Shown: one piece after another, positions 1-4,933 of the stretch | How positions within the stretch are numbered: position 1 is the stretch's first letter | Layout of the letters: each line of letters begins with the position of its first letter | From: a phage | Sequence record: PX915677.1 | DNA: 64,000 nt | Direction: 5' to 3' (one strand) | The notes under the pieces: model-generated | Databases searched by the model: none | Told to the model about the DNA's origin: nothing | The model's input: only the letters and a program-made list of their open reading frames with translations | Made by a program: the position numbers and the translations under genes

Positions 1-198
1 CCATCAATGCCATCTTTACCATCAATGCCATCTTTACCATCAATGCCATCTTTACCATCAATGCCATCTTTACCATCAATGCCATCTTTACCATCAATGC
101 CATCTTTACCATCAATGCCATCTTTACCATCAATGCCATCTTTACCATCAATGCCATCTTTACCATCAATGCCATCTTTACCATCAATGCCATTAGCG
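1..198. repeat. Perfect 18-bp tandem repeat (ccatcaatgccatcttta), about 11 copies, running off the window start
   Basis: Direct reading of positions 1-198; unit repeats without mismatch; encodes (GIDGKD)n on the minus strand. Confidence 0.95.
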
Positions 199-383
199 CC
201 AGTGTCGCCTTTCTCTCCCTGATCACCTTTTTCACCTTTAAACCAATCTCCGATACCGCAACCATTGGTAGATTGACCTACACCACAACCTCCATTGCCA
301 TTGCCATTGTTTCCACTTTTAGCAATAACAGGCGATGCCATTACGGACAGAGCTAGGATTGAGGATAATACAATTGCTTTCAT
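1..383 (-). CDS. Secreted collagen-like (Gly-X-Y) repeat protein, partial (C-terminal part lies beyond window start)
   Basis: Minus-strand ATG at 383..381 with AGGAA upstream; translation MKAIVLSSILALSVMASPVIAKSGNNGNGNGGCGVGQSTNGCGIGDWFKGEKGDQGEKGDTGANGIDGKDGIDG...; Sec-type signal peptide then uninterrupted Gly-X-Y triplets; absent from ORF track because no stop inside window. Confidence 0.6.
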   Translation of the reverse strand, partial: MKAIVLSSILALSVMASPVIAKSGNNGNGNGGCGVGQSTNGCGIGDWFKGEKGDQGEKGDTGANGIDGKDGIDGKDGIDGKDGIDGKDGIDGKDGIDGKDGIDGKDGIDGKDGIDGKDGIDGKDGID

Positions 384-410
384 TTCATAGATTCCTATAC
401 AGTAGACATA

Positions 411-435
411 AAAAAGCCCCAGCCGTAGCCGGGGC
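411..435 (-). terminator. Candidate intrinsic terminator (5-bp GC stem, then T-run on minus strand)
   Basis: GCCCC(10 nt)GGGGC at 416-435 preceded on plus strand by AAAAA 411-415. Confidence 0.3.
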
Positions 436-600
436 AAACCTGAAAGCAACACATGACCGTTGCTATAAATACACTCGCAAATGCACTTACAGCAACGCAA
501 AAAGCCGCTCAAAGGCGGCTATGCGGAAGCTTCAAATGGGGAGAGGGCACGACGCTACAGAAAGAGCGTCACAGTACTAAAAGAGGGGGCTATATTCCTA

Positions 601-2779: not shown

Positions 2780-2789
2780 CTTTCAATTG

Positions 2790-4272
2790 TAAGGGCGCTA
2801 TTGCCCCGCTCTCTATGAGCTTGTTTAAGTCACTATTAACTTAACTATAACCGCTAACTATTCAGTAGTTATAGGTAAGTGGGGCGGTCTTATCAGGAGT
2901 TAACCTTGCCGCCCCCTTATCCGTGATGTTTCATCTGGTATCTTTAATTAGTCGCTATAAACGAAGCCGACCTGATAGCGATGATCAATCATCACAATAA
3001 GGCTATGCGTCCGACTCTATTTAATTACATTACTGTAACCGTCGGCAATATCGTCTACTTTGTTTTCGCTCCCGCTTATCCTTTTGTATCAGCTCTCTAT
3101 CGCTAGTCATCGCCCACTACGGGATACTATTGCGAAAGAGTCACTAACCGCCTAGTATTCCGGCGTTTTATATCTTTCAGCAGGTTTACTACATAACCCG
3201 ACTATGTACTTTCATCTTGTGATGAATCTCAAGCCGTTCACATCGTAAACGTTCGCATTAAACCTTATTGTTAAATAGCAATTTGCCACTTTTTAACCAC
3301 TCCCCGCCGCCCTCAATTGGGCGTTAATTCTTCGGGATTGCCTACCCTGATTAACTTCTTTCACTGTAGCACCTTGTTAGCGATGGCCGCCGCTACCCTT
3401 AACCGTGGGCGATTAGTTTAAGCCGTTGCGTGTACTCAATGAATCCGTTTATCAATGGTGACGTTTCCAGTAAGGGAATGTAAAACTGTTTACCCTGATA
3501 ATTTAGGGAGTTTTACGCCGTTTTATCTGGTATGCTTTCCGATGGTTATTATCATCAAGCATATTCAACCGATATAGGAGAATGTTTAAATTATTAAAGA
3601 GCGGTAAATCTATCAGTGTGCTTTCTCACACTATGCAACTGTTAGCCGTTGTTACGCTTTTCACTGAAGCGATGATTTGCTTAGTGAGTGCTCATTATGA
3701 ATCATGTTGTTTTCGCTGTCAACCGCTTTTTAGTCTTTTTTCGTCGTTCCCGCTATTGGGAGGATATATCAATCAGCTTTATTTGATTGAAGATTAAGCG
3801 GTGAGGCTTAACTTATGACTCATATTGTTAAAGAGCGTTTAGCCTTTTAAAGTGTCTGCTAATCACTGTCACATTGAAGGCTTACTGATTCATTAACAGG
3901 CCGCCTACACCTGAACTAATCGCTGCACTATGTGCCACCTTTCCCGCGATACGTTGATTTGGGAACTAGTTAGCGATGTTTTGCTAACTTGTGGTTAGTA
4001 TGGACTACTTTAACCACGTTTGCAACTCTTTTTATCATCTTCTTTTAATTCCTTTCCCTTATCTCGCGTGAATCTATGCGAAAGGGCAAGATGATAAGTT
4101 TTTAAAGAGCGGGATTTTTTAAGTCATCGCTGACTATGCTCACTATATATCAGGCTTTTTCCGGTGTCAATACTCTTTTTTGAGAATATTTTCACTTTCT
4201 AGCCTGATTTTTAAAGAGCGGGGGCAAGTTTCCTTGCCTTGTATGTTTTACATCGTACCCGATGAATTGAAG
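2790..4272. other. Large ORF-free region (about 1.5 kb) with four direct copies of TTAAAGAGCG(G)
   Basis: No ORF of 60 aa or more with a credible RBS on either strand; motif copies near 3591, 3823, 4097, 4210; lies downstream (minus orientation) of a TAATGTATA motif at 4273-4281. Confidence 0.6.
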
Positions 4273-4281
4273 TATACATTA
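4273..4281 (-). promoter_or_regulatory. TAATGTATA promoter-like motif, minus orientation
   Basis: Plus strand tatacatta at 4273-4281; same 9-mer found upstream of four other genes in this window. Confidence 0.35.
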
Positions 4282-4456
4282 ACCAATGATGGTTGCAATA
4301 GGGTAAAGCAAATTATTTTAAACTTTTTTATAGTGGGATAGATAAAAGAACGGGCGCGCGTGATACATCATAGGAAACGGCTTGTAAAGCAACAATAAGC
4401 GTCCTAAAACGCATCACAACGAGCTAAAAGGGAGTAAGGCATACAATCACCTCATA

Positions 4457-4482
4457 AAAGAGAAAAGCCTCACTAGGAGGCT
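4457..4482 (-). terminator. Candidate intrinsic terminator after the 6265-4559 operon
   Basis: AGCCTC(actag)GAGGCT hairpin 4466-4482 flanked on plus strand by an A-rich run 4457-4465 (T-rich on minus strand). Confidence 0.4.
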
Positions 4483-4558
4483 TACAGGAAGGATTAGAGA
4501 ATCAGATAAATTATGACCATAGGCATGACTACGGCACAATACAGGAGAAAGATTAAGC

Positions 4559-4933
4559 CTATGGATTTACACATTGACCGTTACCGGATGCCATTTCATT
4601 CATGGACTCATCAAAGAGCGTCAACGATGAGCGCATCAAGTGATCGACCGTAATTTGCTTACCAGTGGTTTCATTTACCAGTTGAATAGTTTTATCATAT
4701 GATTGTACATGTTCAAAATCATTTACATGTAAAATAATAACCTTAGGTGACTTTTTACCAGTTTCATAGTTTTCTACAATATAGGTGCACTGTAAACCGT
4801 CAACCGTAGCAGGGGAGAACGTTGCAGCCTTAACGCTACCCATAGATGACAGCAGGACACCTAACAGGAGAACAACCAGAAAGAAGCCTACAAATACTTT
4901 CACTACGAATTTAATAATACCCATGATAATCAA
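4559..4933 (-). CDS. Membrane-anchored small protein (N-terminal hydrophobic segment)
   Basis: ORF track; N-terminus IIKFVVKVFVGFFLVVLLLGVLLSSMGSVKA is signal/anchor-like. Confidence 0.55.
   Translation of the reverse strand: MIIMGIIKFVVKVFVGFFLVVLLLGVLLSSMGSVKAATFSPATVDGLQCTYIVENYETGKKSPKVIILHVNDFEHVQSYDKTIQLVNETTGKQITVDHLMRSSLTLFDESMNEMASGNGQCVNP

Follow-up and report, generated by a model that had tools for sequence, protein, structure and literature searches.

What is a gene for an apparently secreted, collagen-like protein doing in the genome of a virulent coliphage, and why does it break off within a perfect DNA repeat? This question is raised by positions 1-383 of a 64,000-nucleotide (nt) stretch of phage DNA (sequence record PX915677.1; the whole stretch is hereafter called the window). 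A reading frame on the minus strand begins there with the codons of a signal peptide and continues, through an array of identical 18-bp units, beyond the window start. Here we present evidence that this frame is, with high probability, the 5' part of a gene for a miniature type Vc trimeric autotransporter whose collagen-like repeat is polymorphic.

Judged by its nucleotide sequence, the window belongs to a Kuravirus, i.e. a virulent phiEco32-like coliphage (podophage). Its first 6 kb have matches in 99 phage records, which with few exceptions are Escherichia or Shigella kuraviruses (Gordonclarkvirinae, phiEco32-like; 92-97% identity), and a 20-kb internal stretch is ~97% identical to phages KM01, EK5 and MN03. 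The truncated gene is orthologous to phi32_119 of phiEco32, which GenBank calls an 'agglutinating adhesin' and RefSeq a 'tail protein'. Over positions 194-700, BLAST gave 100% identity (507 nt) to phage SkaterBoy_Bas90 (hereafter Bas90) and 99.2-99.4% identity to phiEco32, EK5, phiEc_1 and Ec3-ASingh. These values were taken from BLAST of this unique part; a global MAFFT alignment scattered the window's extra repeat units.

Structure of the gene and its product

The initial annotation had described a minus-strand coding sequence starting at 383, with a Sec signal peptide followed by Gly-X-Y triplets. The start and the signal peptide were borne out: the frame begins with ATG at 383, contains no stop codon and leaves the window at its start, and the translation reads, in order, MKAIVLSSILALSVMASPVIA, KSGNNGNGNGGCGVGQSTNGCGIGDWFK, GEKGDQGEKGDTGAN and then (GIDGKD)x10 GID. 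By inspection, MKAIVLSSILALSVMASPVIA has the layout of a Sec signal (Lys2, a hydrophobic core of ~15 residues, Pro18 and V-I-A at positions -3 to -1) and carries no lipobox; signal peptidase I is predicted to cut after V-I-A, separating MKAIVLSSILALSVMASPVIA from a mature chain beginning with KS. The triplets are indeed unbroken from Gly50 onwards, but they do not follow the signal peptide directly, a 28-residue non-collagen segment (residues 22-49) lying between the two. This segment, KSGNNGNGNGGCGVGQSTNGCGIGDWFK, is rich in Gly and Asn, contains two Cys residues (C33 and C42) and has an irregular Gly spacing, which is not that of Gly-X-Y. The collagen-like region comprises 26 triplets without interruption inside the window (GEKGDQGEKGDTGAN, then the GIDGKD repeats) and no proline; the Pfam domain Collagen (PF01391) matches the window fragment with E 2.5e-16.

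The 3' part of the gene, which lies beyond the window, can be read from the orthologues. Complete alleles start at the same Met and encode the signal peptide, the head, Gly-X-Y triplets, a DADMSAVNANAKSIKALEQSTNKRFASLQKQVDRNRDHASAGISGVAAMANIPQ segment and a C-terminus ending in GAGVSYEW; their products are 196 aa (KM01), 226 aa (phiEco32 and EK5, each), 244 aa (phiEc_1), 250 aa (Ec3-ASingh) and 262 aa (Bas90) long. In a complete orthologue, Pfam detects YadA_anchor (PF03895; E 3.4e-19) at residues 167-226 in addition to Collagen, and a PDB sequence search with the orthologue gave matches to Hia and to the anchor of YadA (2LME, E 2e-8). For the 226-aa orthologue, AlphaFold (56-sequence alignment) predicts a long helix (residues 119-164) and four strands (175-224) with a predicted local distance difference test score (pLDDT) of ~80; it leaves the collagen part unmodelled, which is to be expected of a monomer prediction. 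The top five Foldseek matches in the PDB are Hia (3EMO, 2GR7 and 2GR8), AtaA (9VNJ) and YadA (2LME). All matches above noise are to autotransporter anchors (E 4e-8 to 5e-4, template modelling score 0.67-0.86).

The Gly-X-Y run of the orthologues stops ~50 residues before the anchor strands. No YadA-type head or stalk passenger domain was found in the orthologue, for which Pfam gives Collagen and YadA_anchor only; the extended signal peptide (ESPR) and the head and stalk families (PF13018, PF05658 and PF05662) had no Pfam match, and tblastn detected no anchor sequence elsewhere in the 64-kb window. All six complete alleles keep the anchor in frame, and so does each of the seven 3' fragments that were examined. 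Across the 147 codons of the 3' part common to six alleles, a rough count gave ten variable codons with synonymous changes only and four with amino-acid changes, which suggests that this part of the gene is under constraint.

A Sec signal peptide is obligatory for type Vc autotransporters. The signal peptide, which had been considered odd for a phage fibre, is therefore what is expected of a trimeric autotransporter, and the gene lies far from the tail genes. The description of the product as a secreted collagen-like protein was correct as regards export and collagen likeness; the protein would not be free, however, since the orthologues end in a coiled coil and a YadA-like anchor.

The annotated starts of two orthologues lie further upstream (TTG in phi32_119, 798 nt; Bas90_0117, 918 nt), and both of these frames span two terminator-like hairpins. 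The internal ATG is the more plausible start, because a protein starting there has its signal peptide at the N-terminus, and because the EK5, phiEc_1 and KM01 records use this codon. A two-codon mini-ORF (open reading frame), ATG AAA TGA (388-380), shares an ATGA overlap with the start codon of the autotransporter gene. The features of the locus are collected in Table 1.

Table 1. Position and strand of the features of the predicted autotransporter locus in the window
Feature	Position	Strand	Basis
5' part of phi32_119 / Bas90_0117 orthologue, 127 codons + 2 nt	1..383	-	translation, orthology
Predicted Sec signal peptide, residues 1-21, MKAIVLSSILALSVMASPVIA	321..383	-	rule-based, by inspection
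Minimal 'head'/linker, residues 22-49, KSGNNGNGNGGCGVGQSTNGCGIGDWFK	237..320	-	translation
Collagen-like Gly-X-Y region from Gly50 (nt 236)	1..236	-	translation, Pfam PF01391
Perfect 18-bp tandem array, coding unit GGCATTGATGGTAAAGAT = GIDGKD	1..193	.	Tandem Repeats Finder
Shine-Dalgarno-like AGGA, 9 nt 5' of ATG 383	393..396	-	read from sequence
Terminator-like hairpin, 8 pairs (7 G-C) then TTTTTT, directly 5' of gene	416..435	-	
Second terminator-like hairpin, 3' of phi32_120 homologue (601-1044)	503..520	-	

Polymorphism of the 18-bp array

Tandem Repeats Finder describes the array as a repeat of period 18 with 100% matches, 0 indels and a score of 386. Since the runner-up tandem repeat in the 64-kb window scores only 59, the array is far beyond chance. 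About 11 identical copies over 198 bp had initially been counted; a perfect array of GIDGKD units is present, and its extent is 193 nt or 10.7 copies. Exact units start at 12, 30 and so on up to 174 on the minus strand, which makes ten complete units (12-191) and 11 nt of an eleventh. Because the window edge cuts the array, the copy number of the window allele is a lower bound, i.e. at least 10.6 units.

The expectation that copy number would vary was confirmed by comparison among isolates. The resolved alleles contain 0, 1, 2, 3, 4, 5, 7 or 8 units, and the codons GGC ATT GAT GGT AAA GAT are common to all alleles. The unit is absent from KM01 and present once in EK5, twice in phiEco32 (one unit with a synonymous change), three times, alongside variant units, in EcK-vB, EcP-vB and EcM-vB1, four times in phiEc_1, five times in Ec3-ASingh, seven times in Bas90 and eight times in PGN6866; these copy-number statistics rest on ~13 GenBank isolates. 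Alleles differ in length only within the part that codes for collagen triplets, and always by a multiple of 18 bp. Given the 18-bp unit and the fact that all alleles are in frame, on/off switching by frameshift is excluded and length alone changes. The locus shares with simple-sequence contingency loci the perfect tandem units and a copy number that depends on the isolate, the codons being identical.

Other rearrangements were also found in this region. In KM01, the array and the adjoining triplets have been lost via deletion between two AAAGGTGAAAAAGGTGAT direct repeats, while PGN6866 is a hybrid in which the window-type head is joined to the collagen segment of an EcK-type allele. The latter case indicates that the repeats coding for Gly-X-Y also act as substrates of recombination, with shuffling of modules. 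A second head allele (MKAFALSAILVLSAISAPSFAHSDKCSHSKQCEVQQGPKGD...) is present in EcK-vB, EcP-vB, EcM-vB1 and ShigP1, with an unchanged 3' half.

The exact length of the window array has to be treated separately from the existence of the repeat. We consider it rather likely that the long array is partly a product of assembly, i.e. that the repeat is genuine and '10.7 copies' marks the point where a short-read assembler stopped, the stock perhaps containing mixed lengths. Three GenBank records, those of PGN6866, MN03 and FS2B, start or stop within the array, the ShigP1 record contains 95 Ns within it, and the window itself starts inside it; moreover, the PGN6866 record has eight bounded units at one end and at least nine at the other. 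Every array bounded on both sides within one record has at most 8 units (144 bp), which is below the length of a typical short read, so longer arrays are evidently not spanned by short-read assemblies. The window allele, with its at least 10.6 units, is longer than any of these bounded arrays in GenBank. None of this conflicts with the identification of the gene as an autotransporter. The array as such is no artefact, since the unit, with variation in its number, was encountered again and again in isolates obtained independently in several countries (Japan, Switzerland, India, Egypt and Bangladesh). The caveat of the initial annotation thus applies to the copy number given here, which is untrustworthy because records break in the array, but not to the repeat, which is real.

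The position of the window start can be viewed in the same way. In phiEco32, a tRNA-Arg gene is located ~3.3 kb beyond the autotransporter gene, i.e. left of window position 1, and no tRNA genes were found in the 64-kb window; the two observations together are consistent with the window starting at an assembly break and not at a genome end. A protein search with the window fragment was dominated by generic collagen-like proteins, and no long array in a full-length allele came to light. When IMG/VR, JGI metagenomes and GTDB genomes were scanned for exact matches to the junction between unique flank and array and to a 3-unit array, phiEco32 alone was returned.

Genomic location and expression

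The gene is located on the strand of the leftward early genes, outside the tail module, and appears to be an optional component of the genome. Positions 407-700 are conserved (94-99%) in 76 records, of which ~13 phages alone continue into the gene, while the gene-free kuraviruses diverge just past the T-tract of the hairpin (window 407). The slot following hairpin 435-416 is empty in ES17, Bas91 and SU10. In SGF2 the slot is occupied by a ~100-aa helix-turn-helix (XRE-like) gene, with a 24-nt leader and start position as in the autotransporter gene. As ~13 phages carry the gene and the slot is empty or otherwise filled elsewhere, we regard it as accessory cargo (moron-like) in a fixed slot. 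None of 5,426 complete E. coli genomes contained a DNA match to the gene; this speaks against the gene having come recently from the host or from a prophage. A PADLOC scan for defence systems gave no match.

Two sigma70-like promoters lie upstream on the minus strand, at 4170-4142 (TTGACA-17-TATAGT) and 3722-3694 (both 11/12). An ORF-poor spacer of ~1.8 kb (2780-4559) holds both sites and several hairpins, and is probably the early-promoter spacer described for SU10 and phiEco32, whose early promoters are on record (PMC4281155). Closer to the gene, a sigma70-type scan of positions 1-1200 found no minus-strand promoter, and the phage-sigma motif AATGTA is matched upstream in 5/6 positions at best (by eye), so that no promoter is claimed. 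The gene would therefore have to be expressed by read-through or from an unrecognised promoter. The GC skew of the window changes sign at ~6000 and ~38000, at the switches between leftward and rightward transcription.

Related proteins

The closest relatives are the kuravirus orthologues (phiEco32 gp119, Bas90_0117, the genes of EK5, phiEc_1 and KM01, and the 'YadA-like protein' of EcP-vB). They represent the same gene with the same unit in the same slot; their signal peptide and head are identical or nearly so, and outside the array they share 99-100% nucleotide identity with the window gene. Moreno Switt et al. 2013 (PMC3728262) had noted yadA homologues in phiEco32 and in the N4-like Salmonella phages mentioned below, and had pointed out that these genes lie away from the tail genes.

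Among 5.8 billion proteins searched, 1,820 matched. The best 120 of these are built alike, a short head being followed by 12-57 Gly-X-Y triplets, then by a coiled coil and finally by a YadA anchor with a terminal Trp; most of them have signal-peptide-like N-termini, and ~100 of the 120 contain exactly two Cys residues before the collagen part. Many members of the family are encoded on 70-77-kb contigs. Relatives in GenBank include proteins of N4-like Salmonella phages (Ithacavirus FSL SP-076 and SP-058), whose genes are adjacent to dUTPase and early genes, as well as proteins of jumbo phages (GAP32, fHe-Yen9) and others.

The phage protein resembles the autotransporters YadA, Hia and AtaA in its Sec signal, in the coiled coil leading into an anchor of four strands per chain, and in the terminal aromatic residue. 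In contrast to them, it has no YadA head or stalk, its passenger consisting of ~30 residues and a collagen-like rod; its length is ~200-300 aa, against 450 to several thousand, and its carrier is a virulent phage. The VtaA proteins of Haemophilus (Glaesserella) parasuis share the placement of collagen repeats directly N-terminal of a YadA anchor, and indels between strains have been described in these repeats (PMC6211672). However, VtaA proteins are much larger chromosomal virulence factors with ESPR and a YadA head/stalk (PMC6211672), whereas the phage protein has a 21-residue signal and none of these regions was detected in it.

Surface-exposed Gly-X-Y rods with a strain-variable number of triplets are also formed by Scl1/Scl2 of Streptococcus, BclA of Bacillus and Lcl of Legionella. 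In the case of BclA, the number of repeats sets the length of the exosporium hairs. These proteins differ in anchoring (LPXTG or exosporium), whereas the phage orthologues have an outer-membrane barrel. The NCBIfam models of Scl1, Scl2 and Lcl matched the collagen part with 40, 29 and 26 bits, whereas their curated cut-offs are 400, 325 and 500, so the protein is not a member of these families, and NCBIfam matches to BimA and the YadA anchor were sub-threshold.

Phage-borne genes for host outer-membrane proteins, e.g. those for Eib, T5 Llp and Cor, offer a resemblance that is functional only. Llp and Cor are lipoproteins that mask FhuA and thereby block re-adsorption. The Eib proteins of E. 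coli prophages, which are trimeric autotransporters, make cells form chains and autoaggregate (PMC12511318); they differ from the kuravirus protein in being carried by temperate phages, in having coiled-coil stalks and in binding immunoglobulin.

Cell surface or virion?

Several points weigh against the interpretation presented above. Membership of type Vc rests on orthology, because the anchor of the window allele lies outside the window. We infer a triple helix for a collagen part that is devoid of proline and has a pLDDT below 50 in the monomer model. For the gene itself no promoter was found, and two terminator-like hairpins lie directly upstream; most kuraviruses do without it. The literature searched gave no functional data on the kuravirus gene and, concerning the tested function of phage YadA-anchor proteins, annotation-level remarks only. 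Furthermore, GenBank applies the label 'phage particle associated' to gp092 of Yersinia phage fHe-Yen8-01, a protein with the same anchor, and cyanophage YadA-domain proteins were found in virions by liquid chromatography-mass spectrometry (PMC9146016).

The last two points would fit a component of the virion, i.e. a collagen-like tail fibre or 'tail protein' whose C-terminal domain serves as a trimerisation or membrane-contact module on the particle. The best PHROG match, phrog_26246, also bears the label 'tail protein' (E 1e-102), and many collagen-containing tail-fibre PHROGs match as well; such a label is, however, the name of a family and not a test. A cleavable Sec signal together with a beta-barrel anchor whose last residue is aromatic is what characterises proteins of the outer membrane, and the gene is situated in the leftward early region, outside the structural module (PMC4281155). 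Kuraviruses are described as having a common virion design, yet most of them lack the gene, and receptor binding is the task of their long and short tail fibres (PMC11990801). Outer-membrane debris is a routine contaminant of phage preparations and could explain the 'particle associated' flag. Taken together, these arguments make a virion location improbable. The Yersinia phage protein gp092 (324 aa) has a signal peptide and a coiled-coil stalk without collagen, and is also labelled 'receptor binding protein'.

Still more improbable is a freely secreted or periplasmic protein, produced by a window allele without a functional anchor (e.g. disrupted in or after the array): the window does show a signal peptide and collagen part only, but the 507 nt before the array are identical to those of Bas90, whose gene is intact and anchored, every complete allele and 3' fragment examined keeps the anchor in frame, and an 18-bp unit cannot shift the frame.

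Possible function of the gene product

By comparison with other members of the type Vc family, the precursor would be exported by Sec, with removal of the 21-residue signal peptide, and three YadA-like anchors would insert into the outer membrane via the beta-barrel assembly machinery (BAM) as one 12-stranded barrel. Export of the passenger would proceed from the C- to the N-terminus; the coiled coil would emerge first and set the register of the three chains, and the proline-free, highly charged Gly-X-Y region would then zip in the same direction into a collagen-like rod capped by the two-Cys tip. The product may be pictured as a short hair projecting from the outer membrane of infected cells. 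The number of identical units would determine the length of the rod, with in-frame gain or loss of units occurring by slippage or unequal recombination. Assuming a rise of 0.286 nm per residue, each unit would contribute ~1.7 nm, and the computed rods measure from ~10 nm (KM01) to ~29 nm (Bas90); that of the window allele would reach at least ~36 nm if its 3' part resembles the one of Bas90.

Kuraviruses are O-antigen-dependent phages whose short tails bear both long and short fibres (PMC11990801). For this reason the role that we tentatively prefer is that of a coat on the infected cell, which would hinder further adsorption of phages to cells and debris; the rod might provide a steric or adhesive layer reaching through or beyond the O-antigen, which serves kuraviruses as receptor. 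Agglutination of infected cells and their neighbours, or adhesion between them, is a possibility that we place only slightly behind it. A bolder proposal, which we consider rather unlikely in its entirety, is that the array acts as a phage-borne length dial: slippage would generate a phage population whose early-expressed outer-membrane rods differ in 1.7-nm steps, selection would fit their height to the thickness of the O-antigen or capsule, and short-tailed phages, whether competitors or re-adsorbing progeny, would be kept off by the coat, or the coat would make infected cells stick to fresh hosts. A spanin-like role in lysis was also considered, as a cell-wall-hydrolase gene follows in orthologous loci, and was rejected because most kuraviruses have no autotransporter gene.

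Conclusions

Collagen-repeat trimeric autotransporters and yadA homologues in phiEco32-like phages were already on record, and our finding is therefore incremental. It nevertheless has several practical consequences. The names 'tail protein' and 'tail fibre' appear to be a widespread mislabel of a family that has every sequence hallmark of outer-membrane autotransporters. The array is a recurrent breakpoint in kuravirus assemblies, which matters for the deposition and comparison of therapeutic coliphage genomes, and the gene resembles an adhesin, so that safety screens would flag it.

The locus also raises the question of why genes for small autotransporters with a collagen stalk are found in the early regions of virulent phages from several families. 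The allelic series, extending from 0 to at least 10 units and accompanied by gene-free relatives, constitutes a natural experiment. If the array does act as a length dial, it would mean that the cell surface is rapidly remodelled during the lytic cycle by means of the host type V/BAM pathway, and that this strategy may be common to kuraviruses, N4-like Salmonella phages and jumbo phages.

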